Shown here: positions 1-13,805 of the stretch, one piece after another | How positions within the stretch are numbered: position 1 is the first letter of the stretch | How the letters are laid out: each line of letters opens with the position of its first letter | Source of the DNA: a virus | Taxonomy: Duplodnaviria; Heunggongvirae; Uroviricota; Caudoviricetes | Strand: one strand, 5' to 3' | Virus record (IMG/VR): IMGVR_UViG_2703718840_000009 | Location: 1 to 13,805 of that record | Length of the DNA: 13,805 nt | The notes under the pieces: generated by a model | Told to the model about the DNA's origin: nothing | The model's input: only the letters and a program-made list of their open reading frames with translations | Databases searched by the model: none | Program-made: the position numbers and the translations under genes

Positions 1-585
1 CTATTCGATAATGGGTCCTGTTGGCCATTCAATATCCGGTGCAGTTGATGTATCAACACGGTTCAGCAACACCCGATACTTCTTCCAGGCTTCCAGCAAC
101 GAGTTTTCTTCCTCCGTTGCGATCTCCAGATCCACAGCATCCTGAAGCGGCGCTATATGCTCACTGGCTACCTGCATCAGGCTGTTTTTTGTTTCTTCCG
201 CCTCCCGGATCCGGAACAGTTTTTCTGCTTCCGTATCCTTCACCCAGGCTGTGCCGTTCCACTTCTGATATTCCCCTCCCGGCGACAACCAGGTAACATT
301 TTCCGGTAACGGACCGAGTTCAGAAATAAATAACGCGTCGCCGGAAGCCACGTCATAAACCGTTTTACCCCGATGGTCTTCAACGAGATGCCACGATGCC
401 TCATCACTGTTGAAAACGGCCACAAAGCCAGCAGGAATATCTGGCGGTGCAATATAGGTACTGTTTGCTGGCAGACCTGTATGAGGCGGAATATATGCAT
501 CACCTTCACCAATAAATTCATTAGTTCCGGCCAGCAGATTATAAATTTTTATGGTCCGTGGTTGTTCACTCATTCTGAATGCCAT
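1..585 (-). CDS. tfa: Tail fibre assembly protein Tfa
   Basis: 194-aa ORF ([24 protein letters not shown]...) matches lambda Tfa from memory. Stop codon is at 1-3; start overlaps the stf stop (ATGA). Confidence 0.9.
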
Positions 586-1481
586 TATGCAAGCCTCACA
601 ATATAGTTAAATGCGATGTTTTTGACGGTGTTTTCCGCGTTACCAGCAGCGTTAACGGTGATGGTGTGTCCATGTGAACCAATCGCAACCGAGTGCGTAT
701 GCGCACCAATACCGACAGTATGTGCGTGTGCACCTGCGCTTGCAGCAGTACCCGATACAGAGTGCGTATGAGCGCCTGCAGAAGAAGTGTTAACACTGTA
801 TTTAGAATAATCAGGTGATCCACTTCCCGGAGCACCACTGGAACCACCTGAAACAAATGTCATCGAATGGGTATGTGCACCGGCTGAAGCAGCCGTACCG
901 CTAACACTATGGGTATGCGCACCAGTGTTATTCGTGGATTTAGTGCCGTAATCAAACGACGATGTGGTTTTCGTCCCCAAATCCGTACTGGATACGCTGG
1001 CGCTGTGGGTGTGTGATTTAATGCCGTCCTGTTCCTGAGACAATACGGCTCGATCACTGGCGGGCTTGCCCTTAATCGTCCAGCCACGCATATCAGGGAT
1101 CACGCCTGACGGATAAGCGGCTGCAAGTTTCGGGTAAGCAGATTTGTCAAAAGTCTGCCCCTGCATCAGGGCATAACCAGACGGAACGGTATCTGATGGC
1201 CACGGGATTGGTGCACCGACTGGATAAAACTCTGCAGGAGGATGAGCCGAGGTGTAAAGCTGCGCCCACGGCGACCAGTTTGCGTCGGTCGTATCCCGTC
1301 GTGAACGAATAAATGCCGGAGCATGAGCACCGCTTGTACCACTCCAGCCGATGAGTAACTCACCTTCGCCAACGGCTGTCATCCCTTTCAGGTGAATGAT
1401 ATTTCCATACGCTGTTGGATATCCGTTGTTATACACCTCGTATAACTCAAGACCTGTTGCCCCCTGCGTATTGTCTGTCAA
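585..1481 (-). pseudogene. stf: Side tail fibre protein Stf, C-terminal fragment (~298 codons) truncated at a deletion junction
   Basis: His-rich GAHTHS repeats typical of the lambda Stf C-terminus. The frame stays open upstream into terminase A sequence with no native start; the ORF track start is a TTG. Confidence 0.8.
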
Positions 1482-1657
1482 CGCGGTTGAAAGGGCAGTG
1501 TTTCCCAGCGCCCTTCCTGGTATGCGGATTCTTTCGGGAGATAGTAATTAGCATCCGCCCATTCAACGGCGGTCTGTGGCTCCGGCCTGAACAGTGAGCG
1601 AAGCCCGGCGCGGACAAAATGCCGCAGCCTGTTAACCTGACTGTTCGATATATTCAC
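1478..1657 (-). pseudogene. A: Terminase large subunit A, N-terminal ~57-codon remnant ending at the deletion junction
   Basis: Reverse complement reads [59 protein letters not shown], then departs from lambda A and hits TGA. Start overlaps the nu1 end as in lambda. Confidence 0.75.
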
Positions 1658-2177
1658 TCAGCAACCCCGGTATCAGTTCATCCAGCGCGGCTGCTTTGTT
1701 CATGGCTTTGATAATATCCCGTTTCAGGAAATCAACATGTCGGTTTTCCAGTTCCGGAAAACGCCGCTGCACCGACAGGGGGAGCCCGTCGAGAATACTG
1801 GCAATTTCACCTGCGATCCGCGACAACACGAAAGTACAGAATGCGGTTTCCACCACTTCAGCGGAGTCTCTGGCATTCTTCAGTTCCTGTGCGTCGGCCT
1901 GCGCACGCGTAAGTCGATGGCGTTCGTACTCAATAGTTCCTGGCTGGAGATCTGCCTCGCTGGCCTGCCGCAGTTCTTCAACCTCCCGGCGCAGCTTTTC
2001 GTTCTCAATTTCAGCATCCCTTTCGGCATACCATTTTATGACGGCGGCAGAGTCATAAAGCACCTCATTACCCTTGCCACCGCCTCGCAGAACGGGCATT
2101 CCCTGTTCCTGCCAGTTCTGAATGGTACGGATACTCGCACCGAAAATGTCAGCCAGCTGCTTTTTGTTGACTTCCAT
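1632..2177 (-). CDS. nu1: Terminase small subunit Nu1
   Basis: 181-aa ORF (MEVNKKQLADIFGASIRTIQNWQEQGMPVLRGGGKGNEVLYDSAAV...) matches lambda Nu1 from memory, with an N-terminal HTH. Confidence 0.92.
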   Translation of the reverse strand: MEVNKKQLADIFGASIRTIQNWQEQGMPVLRGGGKGNEVLYDSAAVIKWYAERDAEIENEKLRREVEELRQASEADLQPGTIEYERHRLTRAQADAQELKNARDSAEVVETAFCTFVLSRIAGEIASILDGLPLSVQRRFPELENRHVDFLKRDIIKAMNKAAALDELIPGLLSEYIEQSG

Positions 2178-2189
2178 TGTTCATTCCAC

Positions 2190-2400
2190 GGACAAAAACA
2201 GAGAAAGGAAACGACAGAGGCCAAAAAGCTCGCTTTCAGCACCTGTCGTTTCCTTTCTTTTCAGAGGGTATTTTAAATAAAAACATTAAGTTATGACGAA
2301 GAAGAACGGAAACGCCTTAAACCGGAAATTTTTCATAAATAGCGAAAACCCGCGAGGTCGCCGCCCCGTAACCTGTCGGATCACCGGAAAGGACCCGTAA
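2190..2400 (-). other. cos: Annealed cos site (cosB-cosN-cosQ); 12-nt cohesive-end sequence at about 2355-2366
   Basis: Plus strand 2341-2366 (agcgaaaacccgcgaggtcgccgccc) is the reverse complement of the lambda left end GGGCGGCGACCTCGCGGGTTTTCGCT. It is followed directly by cgtaacctgtcgg, the reverse complement of the lambda right end. Confidence 0.85.
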
Positions 2401-2565
2401 AGTGATAATGATTATCATCTACATATCACAACGTGCGTGGAGGCCATCAAACCACGTCAAATAATCAATTATGACGCAGGTATCGTATTAATTGATCTGC
2501 ATCAACTTAACGTAAAAACAACTTCAGACAATACAAATCAGCGACACTGAATACGGGGCAACCTC

Positions 2566-2760
2566 ATGTCAACGAAGAACAGAACCCGCAGAACAACAAC
2601 CCGCAACATCCGCTTTCCTAACCAAATGATTGAACAAATTAACATCGCTCTTGAGCAAAAAGGGTCCGGGAATTTCTCAGCCTGGGTCATTGAAGCCTGC
2701 CGTCGGAGACTAACGTCAGAAAAGAGAGCATATACATCAATTAAAAGTGATGAAGAATGA
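2566..2760 (+). CDS. Hypothetical small protein with a possible ribbon-helix-helix (Arc/CopG-like) fold
   Basis: 64-aa ORF starting in right-end lambda sequence (catgaggttgccccg). Basic N-terminus then a strand-helix-helix pattern (RNIRFPNQMIEQINIALEQKGSGNFSAWVIEACRRRL). No convincing RBS seen. Confidence 0.35.
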   Translation: MSTKNRTRRTTTRNIRFPNQMIEQINIALEQKGSGNFSAWVIEACRRRLTSEKRAYTSIKSDEE

Positions 2761-2924
2761 ACATCCCGCGTTCTTCCCTCCGAACAGGACGATATTGTAA
2801 ATTCACTTAATTACGAGGGCATTGCAGTAATTGAGTTGCAGTTTTACCACTTTCCTGACAGTGACAGACTGCGTGTTGGCTCTGTCACAGACTAAATAGT
2901 TTGAATGATTAGCAGTTATGGTGA

Positions 2925-3131
2925 TCAGTCAACCACCAGGGAATAATCCTTCATATTATTATCGTGCTTCACCAACGCTGCCTCAATTGCTCTGAATGCT
3001 TCCAGAGACACCTTATGTTCTATACATGCAATTACAACATCAGGGTAACTCATAGAAATGGTGCTATTAAGCATATTTTTTACACGAATCAGATCCACGG
3101 AGGGATCATCAGCAGATTGTTCTTTATTCAT
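2925..3131 (-). CDS. Hypothetical 68-aa protein of the lambda right arm
   Basis: ORF in a visibly AT-rich block at the position of a small ORF I recall near the lambda right end. Confidence 0.5.
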
Positions 3132-3293
3132 TTTGTCGCTCCATGCGCTTGCTCTTCATCTAGCGGTTAAAATATTACTTCAAATCTTTCTGTATGAAGA
3201 TTTGAGCACGTTGGCCTTACATACATCTGTCGGTTGTATTTCCCTCCAGAATGCCAGCAGGACCGCACTTTGTTAAGCAACCAATACTATTAA

Positions 3294-3827
3294 GTGAAAA
3301 CATTCCTAATATTTGACATAAATCATCAACAAAACACAAGGAGGTCAGACCAGATTGAAACGATAAAAACGATAATGCAAACTACGCGCCCTCGTATCAC
3401 ATGGAAGGTTTTACCAATGGCTCAGGTTGCCATTTTTAAAGAAATATTCGATCAAGTGCGAAAAGATTTAGACTGTGAATTGTTTTATTCTGAACTAAAA
3501 CGTCACAACGTCTCACATTATATTTACTATCTAGCCACAGATAATATTCACATCGTGTTAGAAAACGATAACACCGTGTTAATAAAAGGACTTAAAAAGG
3601 TTGTAAATGTTAAATTCTCAAGAAACACGCATCTTATAGAAACGTCCTATGATAGGTTGAAATCAAGAGAAATCACATTTCAGCAATACAGGGAAAATCT
3701 TGCTAAAGCAGGAGTTTTCCGATGGGTTACAAATATCCATGAACATAAAAGATATTACTATACCTTTGATAATTCATTACTATTTACTGAGAGCATTCAG
3801 AACACTACACAAATCTTTCCACGCTAA
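3294..3827 (+). CDS. Hypothetical 177-aa protein of the lambda right arm (true start may be an internal Met)
   Basis: Long ORF in the AT-rich block between cos and bor; an aggaggt RBS-like motif lies inside the 5' end, suggesting a later start. Confidence 0.5.
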
Positions 3828-4116
3828 ATCATAACGTCCGGTTTCTTCCGTGTCAGCACCGGGGCGTTGGCATAATGCAATACGTGTACGCGCTAAACCC
3901 TGTGTGCATCGTTTTAATTATTCCCGGACACTCCCGCAGAGAAGTTCCCCGTCAGGGCTGTGGACATAGTTAATCCGGGAATACAATGACGATTCATCGC
4001 ACCTGACATACATTAATAAATATTAACAATATGAAATTTCAACTCATTGTTTAGGGTTTGTTTAATTTTCTACACATACGATTCTGCGAACTTCAAAAAG
4101 CATCGGGAATAACACC

Positions 4117-4410
4117 ATGAAAAAAATGCTACTCGCTACTGCGCTGGCCCTGCTTATTACAGGATGTGCTCAACAGACGTTTACTGTTCAAAACAAACCG
4201 GCAGCAGTAGCACCAAAGGAAACCATCACCCATCATTTCTTCGTTTCTGGAATTGGGCAGAAGAAAACTGTCGATGCAGCCAAAATTTGTGGCGGCGCAG
4301 AAAATGTTGTTAAAACAGAAACCCAGCAAACATTCGTAAATGGATTGCTCGGTTTTATTACTTTAGGCATTTATACTCCGCTGGAAGCGCGTGTGTATTG
4401 CTCACAATAA
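4117..4410 (+). CDS. bor: Bor lipoprotein (serum-resistance, Iss-like)
   Basis: 97-aa ORF with signal peptide and lipobox (MKKMLLATALALLITGCAQQ), matching lambda Bor from memory. Opposite orientation to the lysis genes, as in lambda. Confidence 0.9.
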   Translation: MKKMLLATALALLITGCAQQTFTVQNKPAAVAPKETITHHFFVSGIGQKKTVDAAKICGGAENVVKTETQQTFVNGLLGFITLGIYTPLEARVYCSQ

Positions 4411-4441
4411 TTGCATGAGTTGCCCATCGATATGGGCAACT

Positions 4442-4903
4442 CTATCTGCACTGCTCATTAATATACTTCTGGGTTCCTTCCAGTTGTTTTTGCATAGTGA
4501 TCAGCCTCTCTCTGAGGGTGAAATAATCCCGTTCAGCGGTGTCTGCCAGTCGGGGGGAGGCTGCATTATCCACGCCGGAGGCGGTGGTGGCTTCACGCAC
4601 TGACTGACAGACTGCTTTGATGTGCAACCGACGACGACCAGCGGCAACATCATCACGCAGAGCATCATTTTCAGCTTTAGCATCAGCTAACTCCTTCGTG
4701 TATTTTGCATCGAGCGCAGCAACATCACGCTGACGCATCTGCATGTCAGTAATTGCCGCGTTCGCCAGCTTCAGTTCTCTGGCATTTTTGTCGCGCTGGG
4801 CTTTGTAGGTAATGGCGTTATCACGGTAATGATTAACAGCCCATGACAGGCAGACGATGATGCAGATAACCAGAGCGGAGATAATCGCGGTGACTCTGCT
4901 CAT
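4442..4903 (-). CDS. Rz: Spanin inner-membrane subunit Rz
   Basis: 153-aa ORF with N-terminal TM segment and coiled-coil body; matches lambda Rz from memory. Confidence 0.9.
4501..4683 (-). CDS. Rz1: Spanin outer-membrane lipoprotein Rz1, nested in the +1 frame of Rz
   Basis: 60-aa ORF inside Rz with lipobox (VVVGCTS) and a proline-rich stretch ([15 protein letters not shown]). Confidence 0.85.
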
Positions 4904-5376
4904 ACATCAATCTCTCTGACCGTTCCGCCCGCTTCTTTGAATTTTGCAATCAGGCTGTCAGCCTTATGCTCGAACTGACCATAACCAGCGCCCGGCAGTG
5001 AAGCCCAGATATTGCTGCAACGGTCGATTGCCTGACGGATATCACCACGATCAATCATAGGTAAAGCGCCACGCTCCTTAATCTGCTGCAATGCCACAGC
5101 GTCCTGACTTTTCGGAGAGAAGTCTTTCAGGCCAAGCTGCTTGCGGTAGGCATCCCACCAACGGGAAAGAAGCTGGTAGCGTCCGGCGCCTGTTGATTTG
5201 AGTTTTGGGTTTAGCGTGACAAGTTTGCGAGGGTGATCGGAGTAATCAGTGAATAGCTCTCCGCCTACAATGACGTCATAACCATGATTTCTGGTTTTCT
5301 GACGTCCGTTATCAGTTCCCTCCGACCACGCCAGCATATCGAGGAACGCCTTACGTTGATTATTGATTTCTACCAT
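4900..5376 (-). CDS. R: Endolysin R (lytic transglycosylase)
   Basis: 158-aa ORF ([35 protein letters not shown]...) matches lambda R from memory; overlaps the Rz start. Confidence 0.95.
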
Positions 5377-5683
5377 CTTCTACTCCGGCTTTTTTAGCAG
5401 CGAAGCGTTTGATAAGCGAACCAATCGAGTCAGTACCGATGTAGCCGATAAACACGCTCGTTATATAAGCGAGATTGCTACTTAGTCCGGCGAAGTCGAG
5501 AAGGTCACGAATGAACCAGGCGATAATGGCGCACATCGTTGCGTCGATTACTGTTTTTGTAAACGCACCGCCATTATATCTGCCGCGAAGGTACGCCATT
5601 GCAAACGCAAGGATTGCCCCGATGCCTTGTTCCTTTGCCGCGAGAATGGCGGCCAACAGGTCATGTTTTTCTGGCATCTTCAT
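5360..5683 (-). CDS. S: Holin/antiholin S (S107/S105 dual start)
   Basis: 107-aa ORF beginning [32 protein letters not shown] with the Met1-Lys2-Met3 dual-start motif and three TM segments. Confidence 0.95.
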
Positions 5684-6088
5684 GTCTTACCCCCAATAAG
5701 GGGATTTGCTCTATTTAATTAGGAATAAGGTCGATTACTGATAGAACAAATCCAGGCTACTGTGTTTAGTAATCAGATTTGTTCGTGACCGATATGCACG
5801 GGCAAAACGGCAGGAGGTTGTTAGCGCGACCTCCTGCCACCCGCTTTCACGAAGGTCATGTGTAAAAGGCCGCAGCGTAACTATTACTAATGAATTCAGG
5901 ACAGACAGTGGCTACGGCTCAGTTTGGGTTGTGCTGTTGCTGGGCGGCGATGACGCCTGTACGCATTTGGTGATCCGGTTCTGCTTCCGGTATTCGCTTA
6001 ATTCAGCACAACGGAAAGAGCACTGGCTAACCAGGCTCGCCGACTCTTCACGATTATCGACTCAATGCTCTTACCTGTTGTGCAGATA

Positions 6089-6145
6089 TAAAAAATCCCG
6101 AAACCGTTATGCAGGCTCTAACTATTACCTGCGAACTGTTTCGGG
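6089..6145 (-). terminator. tR' intrinsic terminator of the 6S transcript
   Basis: On the minus strand, cccgaaac ... gtttcggg stem followed by a U-run (reverse complement of plus-strand 6089-6145). Confidence 0.7.
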
Positions 6146-6282
6146 ATTGCATTTTGCAGACCTCTCTGCCTGCGATGGTTGGAGTTCCAGACGATACGTC
6201 GAAGTGACCAACTAGGCGGAATCGGTAGTAAGCGCCGCCTCTTTTCATCTCACTACCACAACGAGCGAATTAACCCATCGTT
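6089..6282 (-). ncRNA. Lambda 6S RNA (short pR' transcript terminated at tR')
   Basis: Interval between the inferred pR' start and tR'; the sequence matches the lambda pR'-tR' region from memory. The TSS position is approximate. Confidence 0.55.
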
Positions 6283-6320
6283 GAGTCAAATTTACCCAAT
6301 TTTATTCAATAAGTCAATAT
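6283..6320 (-). promoter_or_regulatory. Late promoter pR' with overlapping qut site
   Basis: Minus strand reads TTGACT (-35), 17-nt spacer, TAAATT (-10), as in lambda (ttgacttattgaataaaattgggtaaatttgactcaacgatgg). Confidence 0.65.
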
Positions 6321-6359
6321 CATGCCGTTAATATGTTACCATCCGTGGCAATCATGCTG

Positions 6360-6752
6360 CTAACGTGTGACCGCATTCAAAATGTTGTCTGCGATTGACT
6401 CTTCTTTGTGGCATTGCACCACCAGAGCGTCATACAGCGGCTTAACAGTGCGTGACCAGGTGGGTTGGGTAAGGTTTGGGATTAGCATCGTCACAGCGCG
6501 ATATGCTGCGCTTGCTGGCATCCTTGAATAGCCGACGCCTTTGCATCTTCCGCACTCTTTCTCGACAACTCTCCCCCACAGCTCTGTTTTGGCAATATCA
6601 ACCGCACGGCCTGTACCATGGCAATCTCTGCATCTTGCCCCCGGCGTCGCGGCACTACGGCAATAATCCGCATAAGCGAATGTTGCGAGCACTTGCAGTA
6701 CCTTTGCCTTAGTATTTCCTTCAAGCTTTGCCACACCACGGTATTTCCCCGA
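6360..6752 (-). pseudogene. Q: Antiterminator Q, C-terminal fragment only (~130 codons)
   Basis: C-terminus (SGKYRGVAKLEGNTKAKVLQ ... HKEESIADNILNAVTR) matches lambda Q. The ORF-track extension to 7019 is antisense to bet/exo, so the Q N-terminus is absent. Confidence 0.8.
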
Positions 6753-6948
6753 TAACGATGAAACCATGCAGGAGATTAACACTCTGCTGATCGCCCTGGA
6801 TAAAACATGGGATGACGACTTATTGCCGCTCTGTTCCCAGATATTTCGCCGCGACATTCGTGCATCGTCAGAACTGACACAGGCCGAAGCAGTGAAAGCT
6901 CTTGGATTCCTGAAACAAAAAGCCACTGAGCAGAAGGTGGCAGCATGA
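6748..6948 (+). pseudogene. bet: Bet single-strand annealing protein, C-terminal ~66-codon remnant
   Basis: Reads (PD)[64 protein letters not shown], the lambda Bet C-terminus; stop overlaps the exo start (ATGA). Confidence 0.8.
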
Positions 6949-7625
6949 CACCGGACATTATCCTGCAGCGTACCGGGATCGACGTGAGAGCTGTCGAACA
7001 GGGGGATGATGCATGGCACAAATTACGGCTCGGCGTCATCACCGCTTCAGAAGTTCACAACGTGATAGCAAAGCCCCGCTCAGGAAAGAAGTGGCCTGAC
7101 ATGAAAATGTCCTACTTCCACACCCTGCTTGCCGAGGTTTGCACCGGTGTGGCTCCGGAAGTTAACGCTAAAGCACTGGCCTGGGGAAAACAGTACGAGA
7201 ACGACGCCAGAACCCTGTTTGAGTTCACTTCCGGCGTGAATGTTATTGAATCCCCGATCATCTATCGCGACGAAAGTATGCGTACCGCCTGCTCTCCCGA
7301 TGGTTTATGCAGTGACGGCAATGGCCTTGAGCTGAAATGCCCGTTTACCTCCCGGGATTTCATGAAGTTCCGGCTCGGTGGTTTCGAGGCCATAAAATCG
7401 GCTTACATGGCCCAGGTGCAGTACAGCATGTGGGTGACACGAAAAGATGCCTGGTACTTTGCCAACTATGACCCACGTATGAAGCGTGAAGGACTGCATT
7501 ATGTCGTGGTTGAGCGGGATGAAAAGTACATGGCGAGTTTTGACGAGATGGTGCCGGAGTTCATCGAAAAAATGGACGAGGCACTGGCTGAAATTGGTTT
7601 TGTATTTGGGGAGCAATGGCGATGA
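6945..7625 (+). CDS. exo: Lambda exonuclease (Red alpha)
   Basis: 226-aa ORF ([40 protein letters not shown]...) matches lambda Exo from memory. Confidence 0.95.
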
Positions 7626-7804
7626 AGCATCCTCACGATAATATCCGGGTAGGTGCGATCACTTTCGTCTACTCCGTTACAAAGCGAGGCTGGGTATTTC
7701 CCGGCCTTTCTGTTATCAGAAATCCCCTGAAAGCACAGCGGCTGGCTGAGGAGATAAATAATAAACGGGGAGCTGTATGCACAAAGCATCTCCCGTTGAG
7801 TTAA
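7616..7804 (+). CDS. Small hypothetical protein (lambda orf60a-like); start may be the ATG at 7622
   Basis: Small ORF immediately after exo, overlapping its stop, as in the lambda pL operon. Confidence 0.6.
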
Positions 7805-7968
7805 GAACGAGTATCGAGATGGCACATAGCCTCGCTCAAATTGGAGTCAGGTTTGTGCCAATACCAGTAGAAACAGACGAAGAATTTCATACGTTAGCCG
7901 CATCCCTTTCACAAAAGCTGGAAATGATGGTGGCGAAAGCAGAAGCAGATGAGAGAGACCAGGTATGA
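7777..7968 (+). CDS. Small hypothetical protein (lambda orf63-like)
   Basis: 63-aa ORF overlapping the neighbouring ORFs, in the same order as lambda. Confidence 0.6.
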   Translation: MHKASPVELRTSIEMAHSLAQIGVRFVPIPVETDEEFHTLAASLSQKLEMMVAKAEADERDQV

Positions 7969-8044
7969 CAACCACTGAATGTATTTTTCTGGCAGCGGGC
8001 TTCATATTCTGTGTGCTTATGCTTGCCGACATGGGGCTTGTTCA

Positions 8045-8260
8045 ATGACACCTCAGCAAGAAAACGCCCTTCGCAGCATTGCCCGTCAGGCTAATTCTGA
8101 AATCAAAAAAGCCAGACAGCAGTTTCCGGATAAAAACGTCGATGACATTTGCCGTAGCGTACTGAAGAAGCACCGCGAAACGGTAACGCTGATGGGATTC
8201 ACACCGACTCATTTAAGCCTGGCAATCGGCATGTTAAACGGCGTCTTTAAGGAACGATGA
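8045..8260 (+). CDS. Small hypothetical protein (lambda orf61-region); ORF track extends it upstream to 7979
   Basis: Internal ATG at 8045 gives MTPQQENALRSIARQANSEIKKARQQFPDKNVDD...; no recognisable domain. Confidence 0.45.
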   Translation: MTPQQENALRSIARQANSEIKKARQQFPDKNVDDICRSVLKKHRETVTLMGFTPTHLSLAIGMLNGVFKER

Positions 8261-8358
8261 ACATGAAAAGCAAAATTATCAGGGAGCTACAGGCTCCTTT
8301 TTTATTGCTCGCATTTACCCCCAAGCGTATTAACCAACAATTCAGGGATTAATGGAAG

Positions 8359-8580
8359 ATGGCAGACATCATTGATTCAGCATCAGAAATTGAAGAATTA
8401 CAGCGCAACACAGCAATAAAAATGCGCCGCCTGAACCACCAGGCTGTATCTGCCACTCATTGTTGTGAGTGTGGCGATCCCATAGATGAGCTAAGACGCC
8501 TGGCCGTTCAGGGTTGTCGGACTTGTGCAAGTTGCCAGGAAGATCTGGAGCTTATCAGTAAACAGAGAGGTTCGAAGTGA
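8359..8580 (+). CDS. TraR/DksA-family C4 zinc-finger protein (lambda Orf73-like)
   Basis: 73-aa ORF with CxxC-(17)-CxxC (HCCECGDPIDELRRLAVQGCRTCASC), resembling F-plasmid TraR. Stop overlaps the next ORF start (GTGA). Confidence 0.8.
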   Translation: MADIIDSASEIEELQRNTAIKMRRLNHQAVSATHCCECGDPIDELRRLAVQGCRTCASCQEDLELISKQRGSK

Positions 8581-8990
8581 GCGTAATTCACTCTCAGGCA
8601 CTGCGTGAAGCGGCAGAGCAGGCAATGCCTGACAACTGGGGATTTGACGCGGACCTTTTCCATGAGCTGGTAACACCATCGATTGTGCTGACACTGCTGG
8701 ATGAACGGGAAAGAAACCAGCAATACATCAAACGCCGCGACCAGGAGAACGAGGATATTGCGCTAACGGTGGGGAAACTGCGTGTTGAGCTGGAGACAGC
8801 AAAAATCAAAACTCAACGAGCAGCGTGAGTAGAAGGTGTTATCTCGGATGGAAGTAAGCGTATTGCTGAACTGGAGGCCTGGGTTGAATACACAAGAGCT
8901 GCATACGTAAGAGCAAAAGACAAGGGAGATTTGATCAGAGTTATTACCCGCCAACCAACGGGATTTTACGCTTACGTACCATGTAATTAG
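8577..8990 (+). pseudogene. ea22: ea22-like ORF interrupted by an in-frame TGA at 8826-8828 (83 codons, stop, then 53 open codons)
   Basis: N-terminus MSVIHSQALREAAEQAMPDNWGFDADLFHELVTPSIVL resembles lambda Ea22 (from memory, uncertain). After the TGA the same frame reads VEGVISDGSKRIAELEAWVEYTRAAYVRAKDKGDLIRVITRQPTGFYAYVPCN to TAG at 8988-8990. Confidence 0.5.
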
Positions 8991-9126
8991 GAATCCTTGA
9001 AGTGGCAGCCTAACTGCGGATACACTGAAATGGCGATTTGGTAACATGTTTCGCACAAGGCTGTTACTACACTTAGAGATAATCAGCCATGATTAAACGC
9101 TTTGTAAAAAGTAAAAGGAAATTACA

Positions 9127-9741
9127 ATGAAAAAATCAATACTAATTTTAGGGCTTACGTTAATTGTCTCATCTCAAATACCATCGGCAATGGCAAAAAA
9201 TGAATCAAAACTATGGGTTGTTGTTGATCGAACGGAAAGACATACCTGCCCTTCAAGTAAATGTGGAGTGGCTGGGAAACTATTTTTCAGGGAAGGCGTA
9301 GATTTTCTAGAAAAAAAAGGTGAATGGGTTCGTATAACTGAGCCATATTCAGCCTCATGTGTTGGAGGGGAAAGCGAATATATTAAAGAAGGTAATAAAT
9401 CCTGCACAAGAAAAAATGGAATCGTTAATGGCAAGTTTTCAGAATGGGTTAAACTTAGTGATCTTAGCAGTGAAAGGCCATCAGATCCTGCTGAAAATGC
9501 GAGCGGAGATGATACTTTAATCAAAGGATCTGATGACTACCGTATATACAAAAAAGAGTTTTCTTCGGCAGCTAGGAAGTTAATAAATGAAGGGGTCTGC
9601 ACGGAAAGCGATTTTAAGGAAATCGGAGGGTGGATGGCATCAAGCAATAAGGGTGAAAACATCTATTTCACATATTGCGGAGGAATGACGTTGTCGAACA
9701 GAATATATCTAGACGTTAAAAGTGGAAAGACTTTTAGATAA
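9127..9741 (+). CDS. Hypothetical secreted protein with a possible bacterial SH3-like N-terminal domain (non-lambda)
   Basis: 204-aa ORF with RBS aagga ~8 nt upstream and a signal peptide (MKKSILILGLTLIVSSQIPSAMA). Visibly AT-rich, several Cys, followed by a terminator hairpin. Confidence 0.8.
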   Translation: MKKSILILGLTLIVSSQIPSAMAKNESKLWVVVDRTERHTCPSSKCGVAGKLFFREGVDFLEKKGEWVRITEPYSASCVGGESEYIKEGNKSCTRKNGIVNGKFSEWVKLSDLSSERPSDPAENASGDDTLIKGSDDYRIYKKEFSSAARKLINEGVCTESDFKEIGGWMASSNKGENIYFTYCGGMTLSNRIYLDVKSGKTFR

Positions 9742-9812
9742 TATGATATTACCAATGACAGCATTAATTTAATGCCTCCATAGAATTATCTCCAGGAAGT
9801 AAGTATAAGAAA

Positions 9813-9850
9813 AGCCCGCACAATGAGCTGCTGCGGGCTTTGTGTTATTC
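9813..9850 (+). terminator. Putative intrinsic terminator after the secreted-protein gene
   Basis: Stem agcccgca / tgcgggct with ~11-nt loop, followed by a T-rich tract (ttgtgttatt). Confidence 0.55.
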
Positions 9851-10034
9851 GCCATATTTTATGAAGCAAATACGACACTATAGATAATTAAGCGTTACTG
9901 GTTGTCGATTCCTCACTCATTCCTGCTGATGGCTGTCTTCTTGTATGTGCCATTGAAGGGTAATATCGCGTAAAAAGATACCGGAAGTATCCGCGCCGCC
10001 ATGATTGTCTTTCTCCTGATGCAGGAAAAGCAGA

Positions 10035-10373
10035 ATGACTAGATCAGCAGCAGAGCGCAAAGCCGATCAGAGAGCCAAGCAAGCATCATCCGGTATGCGT
10101 AAGCTGGAGCTTGTACTTGATGCTCAGGAAATTGAAATGCTGGAGCGTAACTGAGCCACGCGCCGCTTCAGGCGTGCGCCTTACGAGTTTGGTGAGTACA
10201 TAGCATTACTGAGCCGCCAGGATGATGCACGTGTGCGCTGGCGTATAAAATCGATTAGCAGAAAACGTTGCCGTAAGTGCGGCGAGAGAGTTCCTGTTAA
10301 TTCATGCCCGTGTAATGGTGACTCACAATACTGGGTGACCAAAGGCTGGCACGAAACAAAATTAATGATATAA
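10035..10373 (+). pseudogene. Zinc-ribbon small ORF (possible Ea8.5 counterpart) split by an in-frame TGA at 10152-10154
   Basis: ATG at 10035 with RBS aggaaaag gives 39 aa (MTRSAAERKADQRAKQASSGMRKLELVLDAQEIEMLERN). After the TGA the same frame stays open to TAA at 10371-10373 and contains CRKCGERVPVNSCPC; a GTG at 10233 could restart it. Confidence 0.4.
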
Positions 10374-10401
10374 ATCTCTGTGACATGTCACGGAGGCGGC
10401 A

Positions 10402-10830
10402 ATGAAATTAGACCAGCAATATCTAAAAGATCTACTTATCGCATTCGAAAAAACTTATGGCCCTGACACGATGCTTAGTGAACTAGAGGATAATGGCTTT
10501 AATAGATATGACCAAAATTTTATTTTCCATATGCGATTATTATGTGACTACGAATTAATAGTTAGGGTTGATGGAAAACCAGGGTTCGGTCATATAATGT
10601 CCAACGAGTTAGGGGAAGGTGTTGAATATAGTTGGATCGAAGTACCACTGAGGTTGACAGCAAGAGGGCATGATTTTATTGCTGACTTACGTCAAAAGGA
10701 GGTCTGGCAAGCTATAAAAACAAACTTTAAGGATGAGGGAATTAGTACTCTTATGAGTGTTTCAAAATCACTAGCAAAAGTCTTTGCAAGGAAAAAAATA
10801 AAAGATATTACAGGAATAGATATTGAATAA
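10402..10830 (+). CDS. Hypothetical 142-aa protein, no signal peptide (non-lambda)
   Basis: Strong RBS ggagg 5 nt upstream; visibly AT-rich; preceded by a 12-bp palindrome and followed by a terminator hairpin at about 10877-10900. Confidence 0.75.
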   Translation: MKLDQQYLKDLLIAFEKTYGPDTMLSELEDNGFNRYDQNFIFHMRLLCDYELIVRVDGKPGFGHIMSNELGEGVEYSWIEVPLRLTARGHDFIADLRQKEVWQAIKTNFKDEGISTLMSVSKSLAKVFARKKIKDITGIDIE

Positions 10831-10876
10831 TTCTTAGCATCAAGCAACTACTGCCTTTGGTGAAAATTATATCTGA

Positions 10877-10900
10877 ACTCGCTACGGCGAGTTTTGTTTT
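10877..10900 (+). terminator. Putative intrinsic terminator after the 142-aa gene
   Basis: 6-bp stem actcgc / gcgagt with loop tacg, followed by tttgtttt. Confidence 0.55.
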
Positions 10901-10913
10901 ACGGAGATGATAA

Positions 10914-11081
10914 ATGCACTTCAGAGTCACTGGTGAATGGAATGGAGAACCATTCAACAGAGTTATCTAAGCAGAGAACATCAATGACTGCTATGACAAC
11001 TGGATGATATGGGCGCAGATAGCACATGCAGACATAACCAATATTCGAATTGAAGAACTGAAAGAACACCAAGCCGCCTGA
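10914..11081 (+). pseudogene. Small ORF upstream of xis (lambda orf55-position) interrupted by an in-frame TAA at 10968-10970
   Basis: Reads MHFRVTGEWNGEPFNRVI, TAA, then AENINDCYDNWMIWAQIAHADITNIRIEELKEHQAA to TGA at 11079-11081. The 168-nt span fits the 55-codon lambda ORF I recall at this position. Confidence 0.4.
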
Positions 11082-11120
11082 TGGCGGTTTTTTCTTGCGT
11101 GTAATTGCGGAGACTTTGCG

Positions 11121-11339
11121 ATGTACTTGACACTTCAGGAGTGGAACGCTCGCCAGCGACGCCCAAGAAGCCTTGAAACAGTTCGTCGATGGGTGCGCGA
11201 ATGCAGGATATTCCCTCCTCCGGTTAAGGATGGAAGAGAGTATCTGTTCCACGAATCAGCGGTAAAGGTTGACTTAAATCGACCAGTAACAGGTAGCCTT
11301 TTGAAGAGGATCAGAAATGGGAAGAAGGCGAAGTCATGA
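11121..11339 (+). CDS. xis: Excisionase Xis
   Basis: 72-aa ORF (MYLTLQEWNARQRRPRSLETVRRWVRECRIFPPPVKDGREYLFHESAVKVDLN...) matches lambda Xis; 3' end overlaps int. Confidence 0.95.
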   Translation: MYLTLQEWNARQRRPRSLETVRRWVRECRIFPPPVKDGREYLFHESAVKVDLNRPVTGSLLKRIRNGKKAKS

Positions 11340-12387
11340 GCGCCGGGATTTACCCCCTAACCTTTATATAAGAAACAATGGATATTACTGCTACAGGGAC
11401 CCAAGGACGGGTAAAGAGTTTGGATTAGGCAGAGACAGGCGAATCGCAATCACTGAAGCTATACAGGCCAACATTGAGTTATTTTCAGGACACAAACACA
11501 AGCCTCTGACAGCGAGAATCAACAGTGATAATTCCGTTACGTTACATTCATGGCTTGATCGCTACGAAAAAATCCTGGCCAGCAGAGGAATCAAGCAGAA
11601 GACACTCATAAATTACATGAGCAAAATTAAAGCAATAAGGAGGGGTCTGCCTGATGCTCCACTTGAAGACATCACCACAAAAGAAATTGCGGCAATGCTC
11701 AATGGATACATAGACGAGGGCAAGGCGGCGTCAGCCAAGTTAATCAGATCAACACTGAGCGATGCATTCCGAGAGGCAATAGCTGAAGGCCATATAACAA
11801 CAAACCCTGTCGCTGCCACTCGCGCAGCAAAATCAGAGGTAAGGAGATCAAGACTTACGGCTGACGAATACCTGAAAATTTATCAAGCAGCAGAATCATC
11901 ACCATGTTGGCTCAGACTTGCAATGGAACTGGCTGTTGTTACCGGGCAACGAGTTGGTGATTTATGCGAAATGAAGTGGTCTGATATCGTAGATGGATAT
12001 CTTTATGTCGAGCAAAGCAAAACAGGCGTAAAAATTGCCATCCCAACAGCATTGCATGTTGATGCTCTCGGAATATCAATGAAGGAAACACTTGATAAAT
12101 GCAAAGAGATTCTTGGCGGAGAAACCATAATTGCATCTACTCGTCGCGAACCGCTTTCATCCGGCACAGTATCAAGGTATTTTATGCGCGCACGAAAAGC
12201 ATCAGGTCTTTCCTTCGAAGGGGATCCGCCTACCTTTCACGAGTTGCGCAGTTTGTCTGCAAGACTCTATGAGAAGCAGATAAGCGATAAGTTTGCTCAA
12301 CATCTTCTCGGGCATAAGTCGGACACCATGGCATCACAGTATCGTGATGACAGAGGCAGGGAGTGGGACAAAATTGAAATCAAATAA
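11317..12387 (+). CDS. int: Integrase Int (tyrosine recombinase)
   Basis: 356-aa ORF (MGRRRSHERRDLPPNLYIRNNGYYCYRDPRTGKEFGLGRDRRIAITEAIQ...) matches lambda Int over its full length. Confidence 0.97.
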   Translation: MGRRRSHERRDLPPNLYIRNNGYYCYRDPRTGKEFGLGRDRRIAITEAIQANIELFSGHKHKPLTARINSDNSVTLHSWLDRYEKILASRGIKQKTLINYMSKIKAIRRGLPDAPLEDITTKEIAAMLNGYIDEGKAASAKLIRSTLSDAFREAIAEGHITTNPVAATRAAKSEVRRSRLTADEYLKIYQAAESSPCWLRLAMELAVVTGQRVGDLCEMKWSDIVDGYLYVEQSKTGVKIAIPTALHVDALGISMKETLDKCKEILGGETIIASTRREPLSSGTVSRYFMRARKASGLSFEGDPPTFHELRSLSARLYEKQISDKFAQHLLGHKSDTMASQYRDDRGREWDKIEIK

Positions 12388-12483
12388 TGATTTTATTTTG
12401 ACTGATAGTGACCTGTTCGTTGCAACAAATTGATAAGCAATGCTTTTTTATAATGCCAACTTAGTATAAAAAAGCAGGCTTCA
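12388..12483. other. attL: attL junction: phage P' arm with Int arm-type sites, 15-bp core (about 12461-12475), then bacterial arm
   Basis: Reverse complement reads tgaagcct-GCTTTTTTATACTAA-gttggcattataaaaaagcattgcttatcaatttgttgcaacgaacaggtcactatcagtcaaaataaaatca: bacterial-side sequence, lambda core, then lambda P' arm. Confidence 0.88.
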
Positions 12484-12521: not shown

Positions 12522-13805
12522 GTGAACACATTTTCAGTTTCCCGTCTGGCGCTGGCATTGGCTTTTGGCGTGACGCTGACCGCCTGTAGCTCAACCCCGC
12601 CCGATCAACGTCCTTCTGATCAAACCGCGCCTGGTACCTCTTCTCGCCCGATTCTGTCGGCAAAAGAAGCGCAGAATTTCGATGCTCAACACTATTTTGC
12701 ATCCCTGACACCAGGTGCTGCAGCGTGGAATCCTTCCCCGATTACCCTGCCTGCGCAACCTGACTTTGTTGTCGGCCCGGCGGGCACTCAAGGTGTAACG
12801 CATACCACGATTCAGGCGGCGGTAGATGCGGCAATTATCAAGCGTACCAACAAGCGCCAGTATATTGCCGTGATGCCTGGTGAGTATCAGGGAACGGTAT
12901 ATGTCCCTGCCGCTCCGGGTGGAATTACTCTGTACGGTACAGGTGAAAAACCGATTGATGTGAAGATTGGGCTTTCCCTTGATGGTGGCATGAGCCCTGC
13001 CGACTGGCGTCACGACGTCAACCCGCGCGGCAAATATATGCCAGGTAAACCAGCGTGGTATATGTACGATAGCTGCCAGAGCAAACGCAGCGACAGTATC
13101 GGTGTTCTCTGCTCTGCGGTCTTCTGGTCACAAAACAATGGCCTGCAACTGCAAAATCTGACCATCGAAAACACGCTGGGCGATAGCGTAGATGCAGGTA
13201 ACCATCCGGCGGTGGCACTGCGTACTGATGGTGACCAGGTACAGATTAACAACGTTAACATTCTCGGTCGTCAGAACACCTTCTTTGTCACCAACAGCGG
13301 TGTGCAGAACCGTCTGGAAACGAATCGTCAGCCGCGTACGCTGGTGACCAACAGCTACATTGAAGGGGATGTGGATATCGTTTCTGGTCGCGGCGCAGTG
13401 GTGTTCGATAACACCGAATTCCGCGTGGTGAACTCACGTACTCAGCAAGAAGCGTATGTGTTTGCACCGGCTACGCTGTCCAACATTTACTACGGTTTCC
13501 TCGCCGTAAACAGCCGTTTCAATGCTTTCGGTGATGGTGTGGCGCAACTGGGCCGCTCGCTGGATGTTGATGCCAATACCAACGGTCAGGTGGTGATCCG
13601 TGATAGCGCCATCAACGAAGGTTTTAACACGGCTAAACCGTGGGCCGATGCGGTGATCTCTAATCGTCCGTTTGCGGGTAATACCGGCAGCGTAGATGAT
13701 AACGACGAAATACAGCGCAATCTGAATGACACTAACTACAACCGCATGTGGGAATACAATAACCGCGGCGTGGGTAGTAAAGTGGTTGCAGAGGCGAAGA
13801 AGTAA
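12522..13805 (+). CDS. ybhC: Host outer-membrane lipoprotein YbhC (pectinesterase-family / acyl-CoA thioesterase)
   Basis: 427-aa ORF with GTG start, signal peptide and lipobox (LTAC); recognised as E. coli YbhC, the gene beside the lambda attachment site. Visibly higher GC than the prophage accessory regions. Confidence 0.88.
   Translation: MNTFSVSRLALALAFGVTLTACSSTPPDQRPSDQTAPGTSSRPILSAKEAQNFDAQHYFASLTPGAAAWNPSPITLPAQPDFVVGPAGTQGVTHTTIQAAVDAAIIKRTNKRQYIAVMPGEYQGTVYVPAAPGGITLYGTGEKPIDVKIGLSLDGGMSPADWRHDVNPRGKYMPGKPAWYMYDSCQSKRSDSIGVLCSAVFWSQNNGLQLQNLTIENTLGDSVDAGNHPAVALRTDGDQVQINNVNILGRQNTFFVTNSGVQNRLETNRQPRTLVTNSYIEGDVDIVSGRGAVVFDNTEFRVVNSRTQQEAYVFAPATLSNIYYGFLAVNSRFNAFGDGVAQLGRSLDVDANTNGQVVIRDSAINEGFNTAKPWADAVISNRPFAGNTGSVDDNDEIQRNLNDTNYNRMWEYNNRGVGSKVVAEAKK

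Follow-up and report, generated by a model that had tools for sequence, protein, structure and literature searches.

Introduction

The closest described relative of the locus considered here is DLP12 (qsr'), a defective lambdoid prophage of E. coli K-12 MG1655. In crosses of lambda with DLP12 the phage acquires DLP12 DNA at high frequency, with 10 of 19 junctions lying next to cos, which is a recombination hotspot; the nu1, R and Rz genes of DLP12 are functional in lambda and recombinants that carry them are viable (PMC3945230). The documented outcome for DLP12 is recombination with the infecting phage and not mobilisation (PMC3945230). Mobilisation of a small cos-bearing element is known from the cos-type phage-inducible chromosomal islands (PICIs), which lambda packages from replicated concatemers by skipping cos sites (PMC6092414). 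In the E. coli PICI EcCICFT073 a phage-type cosB was not found by the authors who described it (PMC6092414). A follow-up study on PICIs reports that helper packaging is redirected (PMC6739421). Defective prophages have also been proposed already as 'proto-hitchers' that other phages complement (PMC11389934; PMC2669165).

The locus considered here lies in a virus record of 13,805 nucleotides (IMGVR_UViG_2703718840_000009), the whole of which is referred to as the window. The initial annotation held that cos and the small terminase gene nu1 had been retained in a prophage without TerL, and that such an element might be packaged or transduced by a lambdoid helper. The observation that cos and nu1 are kept whilst TerL is lost is essentially right, apart from what was said of the tail genes, but the element is probably not transferred as the interpretation would have it.

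Genetic structure of the element

Judged from its sequence, the element in the window is a heavily deleted lambda-family prophage of E. coli, sitting at att-lambda and adjoining ybhC. A BLAST comparison with lambda (NC_001416) resolves the window into lambda blocks in prophage order, forming one end of the E. coli att-lambda locus (Table 1). All the absent parts of lambda are accounted for by two simple deletions, the first of which takes out A from codon 58 onwards, through J and lom, to the 5' part of stf, and the second the 5' part of bet, gam, kil, cIII, N, rex, cI, cro, cII, O, P, nin and the 5' part of Q. Together ~32 kb of lambda is absent, ~20 kb from A to stf and ~12 kb from bet to Q, and the element is left without an immunity region, replication genes, a functional Q, or head and tail-shaft genes. 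Its length is ~14.5 kb, or ~30% of lambda, being the sum of 12475 and 2069 bp with attR outside the window and its position taken from sibling elements. The part that is not lambda amounts to only ~2 kb, with ORFs that match DUF2513 or nothing. Across the 5.27 kb from the truncated Q to the truncated A only 7 positions are unlike lambda, thus the lambda identity of the cos-nu1 region is not due to chance. An Rfam scan of the window gave a sole match, to IS009, within tfa.

Table 1. Features of the 13,805-nucleotide window, in order of position.
Feature	Position in window	Strand	Remarks
tfa, tail fibre assembly	1-585	(-)	Intact, 194 aa; 10 aa differences from lambda orf-194
stf 3' part and tfa block	1-1487		86-94% vs lambda
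stf, 3' part	585-1487 (stf 585-1481)	(-)	~0.9 kb; Collar domain and fibre repeats; 5' part deleted
A stub	1478-1657	(-)	First 57 codons of gpA, then PR-stop
A-stf deletion junction	1487/1488		Lambda 880 joined to stf
Lambda 880-1 block	1488-2366		cosN, cosB, nu1, A start; by BLAST
nu1, terminase small subunit	1632-2177	(-)	181 aa; 181/181 aa identical to lambda gpNu1
Complete cos	2186-2423	(-)	Lambda 48446-182
cosB R1 core	2202-2213	(-)	CGTTTCCTTTCT; exact
cosB R2 core	2247-2258	(+)	Inverted relative to R1 and R3; exact
R3-R2 interval with IHF site I1	2259-2302	(-)	Lambda-identical
cosB R3 core	2303-2314	(-)	CGTTTCCGTTCT; exact
I2	2317-2349	(-)	Lambda bp 18-50; one substitution, T38A, at 2329
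cosN cohesive-end 12-nt	2355-2366	(-)	GGGCGGCGACCT; exact; sole copy in window
Lambda right end	2367-6754	(-)	Lambda 48502-44115, 3 substitutions; p79, p78 (DUF1398), bor, lysis genes, pR'-6S-tR' interval, Q 3' part, cosQ
cosQ	2390-2396	(-)	GGGTCCT; lambda 48473-48479, upstream of cosN
Rz/Rz1	4442-4903	(-)	Proteins lambda-identical
R	4900-5376	(-)	Protein lambda-identical
S	5360-5683	(-)	Protein lambda-identical
Q-bet deletion junction	6753/6754		Lambda 44115 joined to 32220; 2-nt microhomology
bet (last 60 codons), exo (6945-7625), orf60a, orf63, orf61-like	6753-8875	(+)	Lambda 32220-30094, 96.6%
Non-PaPa 'ea' segment	8875-10866		204-aa ORF (9127-9741) and DUF2513 ORF; by Pfam
int/xis/attL block	10866-12475		Lambda 29333-27724, 98.7%
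xis	11121-11339	(+)	Full length
int	11317-12387	(+)	Full length
attL	12388-12475	(+)	P' arm and 15-bp core (12461-12475); lambda-identical; then bacterial DNA
ybhC	12522-13805		Bacterial gene beyond attL

The statement that no capsid or tail genes remain holds for the heads and the tail shaft, which are gone, but not for the tail fibre, as the window retains an intact tfa and 0.9 kb of stf; a loss of 'all morphogenesis genes' is for the same reason an overstatement. Amongst the other retained genes, the proteins of bor, p78 and p79 are identical to those of lambda. The description of the element as int- and xis-positive is borne out, with both genes full length and the P' arm and core of attL intact, and since Int, Xis and attL are all intact it is plausible, from sequence, that the element could be excised with the assistance of a helper.

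The cos site

In lambda the fragment 48446-182 contains cosQ, cosN and cosB, with I2 at bp 18-50 (PMC4856287). By every sequence criterion (cosQ, cosN, I2, R3, I1, R2 and R1) the cos of the window is a complete lambda-type cos. When lambda 47900-48502 and 1-880 of the reference NC_001416 are compared with the window there are three substitutions and one 1-bp deletion, and within cos only two positions are unlike the reference, T38A (window 2329, in I2) and delG138 (window 2229/2230, between R2 and R1).

Both variants were followed in an alignment of the window with five isolated phages, the K-12 lambda prophage record and a sibling prophage. The plaque-forming phage mEp332 is identical to the window over the aligned cos (~25 bp left of cosN to lambda bp 215), the base of T38A is found in both mEp332 and Chlobot, and delG138 is found in mEp332, Chlobot, PhiR68_2, 2H10, the K-12 lambda prophage record and DLP12. 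Most of the phages and prophages aligned have delG138, which leaves reference lambda as the outlier. The spacing of R2 and R1 is consequently 1 bp below that of reference lambda and equal to that of mEp332, Chlobot, PhiR68_2, 2H10 and DLP12, whilst the spacing of cosN and cosB is as in lambda. A mutated cos was considered and rejected, as both variants are present in viable phages. The claim of an intact cosN and cosB is confirmed by an exact cosN and exact R1, R2 and R3 cores, and mutations in cosN or the R sites, which had been named as grounds for abandoning the idea of transfer, were looked for and none was present relative to lambda. The cos of the window should, on its sequence, be recognised and cut by the terminase of a lambda-type helper.

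The terminase genes and their expression

As had been noted from the sequence, nu1 is full length and encodes a protein identical to lambda gpNu1; it carries two base changes relative to lambda, both of them synonymous, and the protein matches the Pfam family Phage_Nu1 (PF07471, E=2.5e-100) over profile positions 1-164 of 164. An intact TerL (gpA, 641 aa) is absent beside it. The earlier description of A as a stub is accurate, with 57 codons left before the junction and then PR-stop. An in-frame fusion of the A stub with Stf was ruled out as the stop lies 2 codons past the junction.

Expression of nu1 in lambda depends wholly on pR' and on antitermination by Q, and no promoter of its own is known for it there. 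In the element Q is truncated, with the 3' 131 codons left. The cos-nu1 module would therefore be silent by itself, as nu1 lies in a late operon that needs Q, and the TerL that would cut cos is absent.

Distribution and sibling elements

The cos-nu1 segment (window 1632-2400) is widespread. In a BLAST search of 5426 complete E. coli genomes it was found at >=80% query coverage in 3914 genomes, at 8931 places, whilst the body of gene A was found at 4860 places in the same genomes. As a rough count, this difference suggests that thousands of cos-nu1 copies are without TerL. The whole window is contiguous in no complete E. coli genome, the best being PSJ-12 with 81% coverage in 4 pieces, and the records of BL21 and C41 match it solely by way of the DE3 prophage, with 75% coverage, so that the defective lambda prophage of E. 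coli B was set aside as its source. The exact junction of A and stf defines a small family at att-lambda that consists of PSJ-12, 23CRST024 and 11 contigs (including L018-L026), which are 100% identical to the window in the sequence that they share with it. The junction of Q and bet was found in none of the 5426 complete E. coli genomes and in none of the GTDB representatives.

Internal deletions within this family differ by lineage. Where the window has bet joined to Q, the PSJ-12 type has N joined to ninF and Q joined to Rz together with an IS5, and the L018 type has bet joined to Rz. The three sibling lineages have thus lost immunity, replication and Q function via different deletions, and all of them have kept the stretch of bor, cos, nu1 and tfa, although this common retention is partly a matter of ascertainment, as the A stub served to find the siblings. 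Separate losses combined with a common retention of cos-nu1 fit a process in which dangerous genes are lost and harmless genes are neutrally kept. As an alternative to neutral retention, the persistence of cos-nu1 in several decaying lineages and in DLP12 could reflect selection.

A separate possibility is defence, in which the element would have been domesticated as a decoy, with the chromosomal cos and a lone Nu1 titrating or misdirecting the terminase of an incoming phage, or causing cleavage of the chromosome, and so reducing the burst that lambda-type phages achieve. In its favour, several decaying lineages have kept cos-nu1, and prophage defences that target packaging do exist, as with TerI of Listeria (10.1101/2025.02.27.640495) and, reportedly, Rpp of the PICIs (PMC6739421). 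However, nu1 would be expressed only after the Q of the helper acts, at which time the helper makes far more Nu1 of its own, the hundreds of cos copies of the phage make a single one in the chromosome negligible, and lambda grows well on K-12 despite the cos-nohD of DLP12. It is extremely improbable that cos-nu1 serves as a decoy.

Recurrent deletion endpoints in bet and Q

A separate observation concerns the endpoints of the deletions. The endpoint on the bet side (lambda ~32220, between GGTT and AACGATG) is used by four further, different deletions in other E. coli prophages, where its partners are gam at codon ~17 (lambda 33180), mid-gam (32927), ninG (42580) and ninE. Every one of these junctions keeps exactly ...TTAACGATGAAACC-ATG, with 2-3 nt of microhomology. 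The search could have detected endpoints anywhere in ~150 bp, so the coincidence of five endpoints is not a product of ascertainment. The endpoint on the Q side (between CCCCGAT and ACCTTG, lambda 44115/6) is also recurrent, with the window keeping the 3' side and PSJ-12 keeping the 5' side, joined to Rz.

One end that stays fixed whilst its partner varies, microhomology at the junction and the lack of any residual element agree with the excision of an insertion sequence (IS) with deletion of adjacent DNA, and on the sequence of the junctions it can be hypothesised that the bet and Q endpoints were made in this manner. Deletions adjacent to an IS are known to span 'from a few nucleotides to >40 000' bp, >30% of E. 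coli assemblies carry the iee gene, and IEE is able to join ends by microhomology (PMC9943667; 10.1101/2023.06.07.543989). An IS-bearing progenitor allele was not found in IMG/VR, the GTDB representatives, metagenomes or a BLAST search over Q, where junction types already known, wild-type alleles and single-base variants were all that came up. These endpoints, recurrent to the nucleotide, may be worth more than the finding on cos-nu1.

Transfer by a helper phage

The proposal that a helper could package or transduce the element divides into two parts. That the cos is compatible with a helper is upheld by its sequence, but transfer as a unit is countered by the lack of a replicon, the single cos and the length of ~14.5 kb, and a helper is unlikely to transfer the element whole. 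The limits of lambda packaging are ~38-51 kb between directly oriented cos sites, and an element of ~14.5 kb with a single cosN and no replicon does not make up a cosmid-like cos-to-cos unit.

In its fullest form the proposal would make the element a proto-satellite, for which a helper would supply the activation of Int and Xis, the terminase, the heads and the tails, the element being excised, packaged, transduced and reintegrated at att-lambda; a trimer, for example, at 3 x 14.5 = 43.6 kb would fall within the size limits of lambda. The element does have an intact cos, the same as in a viable phage, as such a route needs, together with intact int, xis and attL, and there is precedent both in the cos-PICI of one third of the size of lambda that lambda moves in full-size heads by skipping cos sites (PMC6092414) and in the defective O157 prophages that are packaged by the terminase of other prophages (PMC2669165). 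Against this, O, P, ori and other replication genes are absent, thus no concatemer or multimer can form, and a monomeric circle has one cos only. For the cos-PICI the deletion of pri-rep cuts transfer ~100-fold and the loss of alpA or int abolishes it (PMC6092414), and in the element both an AlpA-like inducer and a gene for the redirection of packaging are absent. With 7 differences in 5.27 kb it is plainly lambda with deletions and no dedicated satellite, and the chance that it travels in this way is put as very low.

Packaging might instead begin in situ. From the chromosomal cos it would run through nu1 and tfa to attR and bio, so int, xis, bor and the lysis genes would be left behind, and the site would act as a launch site for the transduction of host genes on the bio-uvrB side, a cos analogue of lateral transduction similar to the 'doc' particles of lambda, which are known from the older classical literature. 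The orientation fits, with cosN followed by nu1 and then tfa, attR, ybhB and bioA, and by its sequence the cos should be cleavable. However, a cos terminase needs a second cos to finish, and DNA that is left protruding without terminal cleavage blocks the joining of tails (PMC6687093). A second exact cosN was found neither elsewhere in the window nor in the 57 kb downstream in the sibling genome PSJ-12. The ten matches to cosN with up to 2 mismatches in these 57 kb are near the chance level, as 4.8 were expected and 4 of 100 shuffles reached 10. Any transfer of host genes would be rare and incidental, and a launch site of this kind is considered improbable.

A further variant links transfer to the retention of cos-nu1, with the element as an incipient 'hitcher' that has shed its dangerous genes but keeps int, xis, att and a helper-compatible cos and sometimes rides lambda-type helpers, cos-nu1 having been kept by selection for mobilisability. 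If a helper were lysogenised at attL its cos would lie ~37.8 kb upstream of the cos of the element (27.7 kb of helper left arm and 10.1 kb from attL to cos), which is right at the lower packaging limit of lambda, and the part from int to Rz might then be packaged cos-to-cos in situ. The route is a contrived one, and there is very little likelihood that the element is mobilised in this way.

A probable role in recombination

It is highly likely that the locus is the packaging end of a decaying lambda prophage, which is inert alone, can act as a recombination partner for lambdoid phages and is not a transmissible unit. Two illegitimate deletions, A-stf and bet-Q, would have removed the heads, tail shaft, immunity, replication and Q, whilst cos, nu1 and the 57 codons left of A, located between the breakpoints and harmless, would have been kept.

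When a lambda-type phage infects the cell, or a co-resident one is induced, its Q would read through pR' into S, R, Rz, cos and nu1, and its Nu1/A terminase together with IHF would bind R3, R2 and R1 and nick the chromosomal cosN. It is known that after cleavage of cos the terminase protects the cosB end, with the cosQ end open to nucleases and recombination (PMC4856287). The exposed end on the cosQ side would be recombinogenic, and exchange could take place at the 4.4 kb of homology from Q to cos and the 0.9 kb of homology over nu1 and the A stub, leading to marker rescue and mosaic phages as has been measured for DLP12 of K-12. The end on the cosB side could enter a prohead, drawing in tfa, attR and the bio side, and with no cos downstream packaging could not terminate and the particles would be a dead end. 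Cleavage of the chromosomal cos at this locus and its effect on recombination are what we infer from DLP12 and the sequence identity. By the same analogy, and given that the homology of the window to lambda is better than that of DLP12 (7 differences in 5.27 kb), the element most probably serves incoming lambdoid phages as a partner for recombination and a store of genes.

The element is one more case in which the packaging end of a lambdoid prophage, that is cos and the small terminase gene, outlasts the structural genes, as it often does. Packaging ends retained in this manner can serve incoming phages as substrates for recombination and so add to phage mosaicism, a role that is already documented for DLP12. 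If such remnants proved to be mobilised they would represent a first step from prophage to satellite, but the gene content of this element gives no such pointer.

Comparison with known systems

Its gene content and order place the element amongst the defective lambdoid prophages, of which DLP12 is the type, and it would work as they do; it is an ordinary relic rather than a novel sort of mobile element. It sits at a phage att site, its genes are in lambdoid order, its morphogenesis genes have been deleted, and its cos-nu1 and A stub are joined to tail-fibre genes. The order in DLP12 is essD, rrrD, rzpD, bor, ybcV, ybcW, ylcI, cos, nohD, A stub and a truncated tfa, so that the gene order around cos is as in the window. 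There are 8 differences between the two cos sites over 271 bp, none of which alters cosN, cosQ or an R core motif in DLP12, and nohD encodes a full-length Nu1 homologue of 181 aa, as does nu1 of the window. In both, A is a 5' stub joined straight to tail-fibre remnants and there are no head or tail-shaft genes. The stub is 309 bp and joined to tfa in DLP12, whereas it is 171 bp and joined to stf in the window; as both length and partner differ, the two A deletions are independent. DLP12 also lies at another locus, has other lysis genes (essD, rrrD) and has kept its nin-Q region, whereas the element of the window is at att-lambda and near-identical to lambda.

Compared with intact phages, the cos, nu1, S, R, Rz, Rz1, bor, int/xis and attP arms of lambda (NC_001416), mEp332 and Chlobot are identical or nearly so to those of the window, whilst the ea region between xis and orf61 is unlike that of lambda PaPa.

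Likeness to satellites is limited. EcCICFT073, the E. coli cos-type PICI mobilised by lambda and phi80, is ~1/3 of the size of its helper, has int and a lambda-like cosN, and uses the terminase and capsids of the helper (PMC6092414), but it has alpA, pri-rep and replicated concatemers, none of which the window has, the window carrying lambda lysis and tail-fibre genes instead. An integrase and att site are present in the window as in a PICI, but these are lambda's own. Amongst the ORFs of the window there is no PICI regulator (AlpA, or Stl/Rpr as in Gram-positive ones), no replication module (pri-rep, ori), with O, P and ori of lambda falling inside the bet-Q deletion, and no recognised gene for packaging interference or redirection. 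Phage lysis and structural genes, unlike in a PICI, are present (S, R, Rz, Rz1 and tfa). Membership of the PICIs or other satellites was rejected on this gene content, with the regulator, replication and interference modules absent.

Sp4 of O157 Sakai is a defective prophage without a working terminase of its own, the cos of which is nearly identical to that of a co-resident phage, and it is packaged by the terminase of Sp14 (PMC2669165). It is near full length and is amplified by the regional replication of a neighbouring prophage, whereas the element of the window is 14.5 kb and has no source of replication of its own.

Sibling elements at att-lambda

Prophage remnants at att-lambda, PSJ-12 (L001) and further siblings of the window element (L018-L026), form a small family with an A-stf junction that is 100% identical to that of the window. 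The internal deletions fall into three different sets, each of which does away with immunity, with replication and with the function of Q, and the stretch between bor and tfa, with cos and nu1 inside it, is kept in every member of the family. In PSJ-12, an IS5 has in addition inserted at window position ~2910, and stf' has lost 677 bp internally.

The two sides of a single break or insertion point in Q are split between sibling elements. The window retains the 3' part of the gene, from CCCCGAT/ on (the slash marks the break), and PSJ-12 retains Q as far as the same point (/ACCTTG...), where it is fused to Rz at lambda 46025. As these sides are complementary, it is suggested that the common ancestor of the window element and PSJ-12 carried an insertion at this point in Q.

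In one genome, CP010237.1, the part of such a prophage nearest int is present twice, at distant loci (L015 and L016). Each copy adjoins a gene for a transposase that has rve and DDE_Tnp_IS240 domains, and an IS-mediated inversion or duplication that split a remnant is suggested.

Features of the window element and related prophages
Feature	Location	Lambda position	Strand	Remarks
IS009 (RF02111), Rfam match	window 44-242		minus	inside tfa coding sequence
Q endpoint	window 6745-6754; PSJ-12 (L001) 13340-13370	44115/44116
bet endpoint	window 6753-6766	~32220		also in other E. coli prophage loci L029-L033, L035-L046, L048-L050
Partner ends of the five bet deletions		Q 44115 (window), gam 33180, gam 32927, ninG 42580, ninE
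204-aa ORF	window 9127-9741			N-terminus hydrophobic, signal-peptide-like
DUF2513 ORF	window 10402-10830
MASE4-GGDEF diguanylate cyclase gene	L001 6587-7927			between tfa and attR, just outside window

Deletion endpoint in bet

A position within bet (GGTT/AACGATG) is a recurrent endpoint, exact to the nucleotide, that is common to five different deletions. There is microhomology of 2-3 nt at each of the five junctions and no residual mobile element at any of them; it is possible that an earlier IS was lost through IS excision with adjacent deletion, of the IEE type. The deletions produce a 60-aa bet' ORF, which is listed by 1109 blocks of the protein collection.

Gene content

The segment between orf61 and xis (window 8875-10866) is not that of lambda PaPa; the 204-aa ORF and the DUF2513 ORF both lie in it. 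The 204-aa ORF has no Pfam match, and the exact protein is listed by 6187 blocks of the collection; many lambdoid prophages, integrated at several att sites, carry it. The IS009 match in tfa is full length and scores 219.5 bits against a gathering score of 117.

In the sibling elements the diguanylate cyclase gene stands in place of the lambda b region and is likely to be a cargo ('moron') gene; packaging that starts at this cos would take it in before any other host-side DNA.

Comparison of cos with lambda

The G found at lambda 138 in NC_001416 is missing at window 2229/2230, and is also missing in KT232076 (the K-12 lambda prophage record), mEp332, Chlobot, PhiR68_2, 2H10 and DLP12. NC_001416 is the outlier at bp 138, and its extra base is either an insertion specific to PaPa or an old sequencing error.
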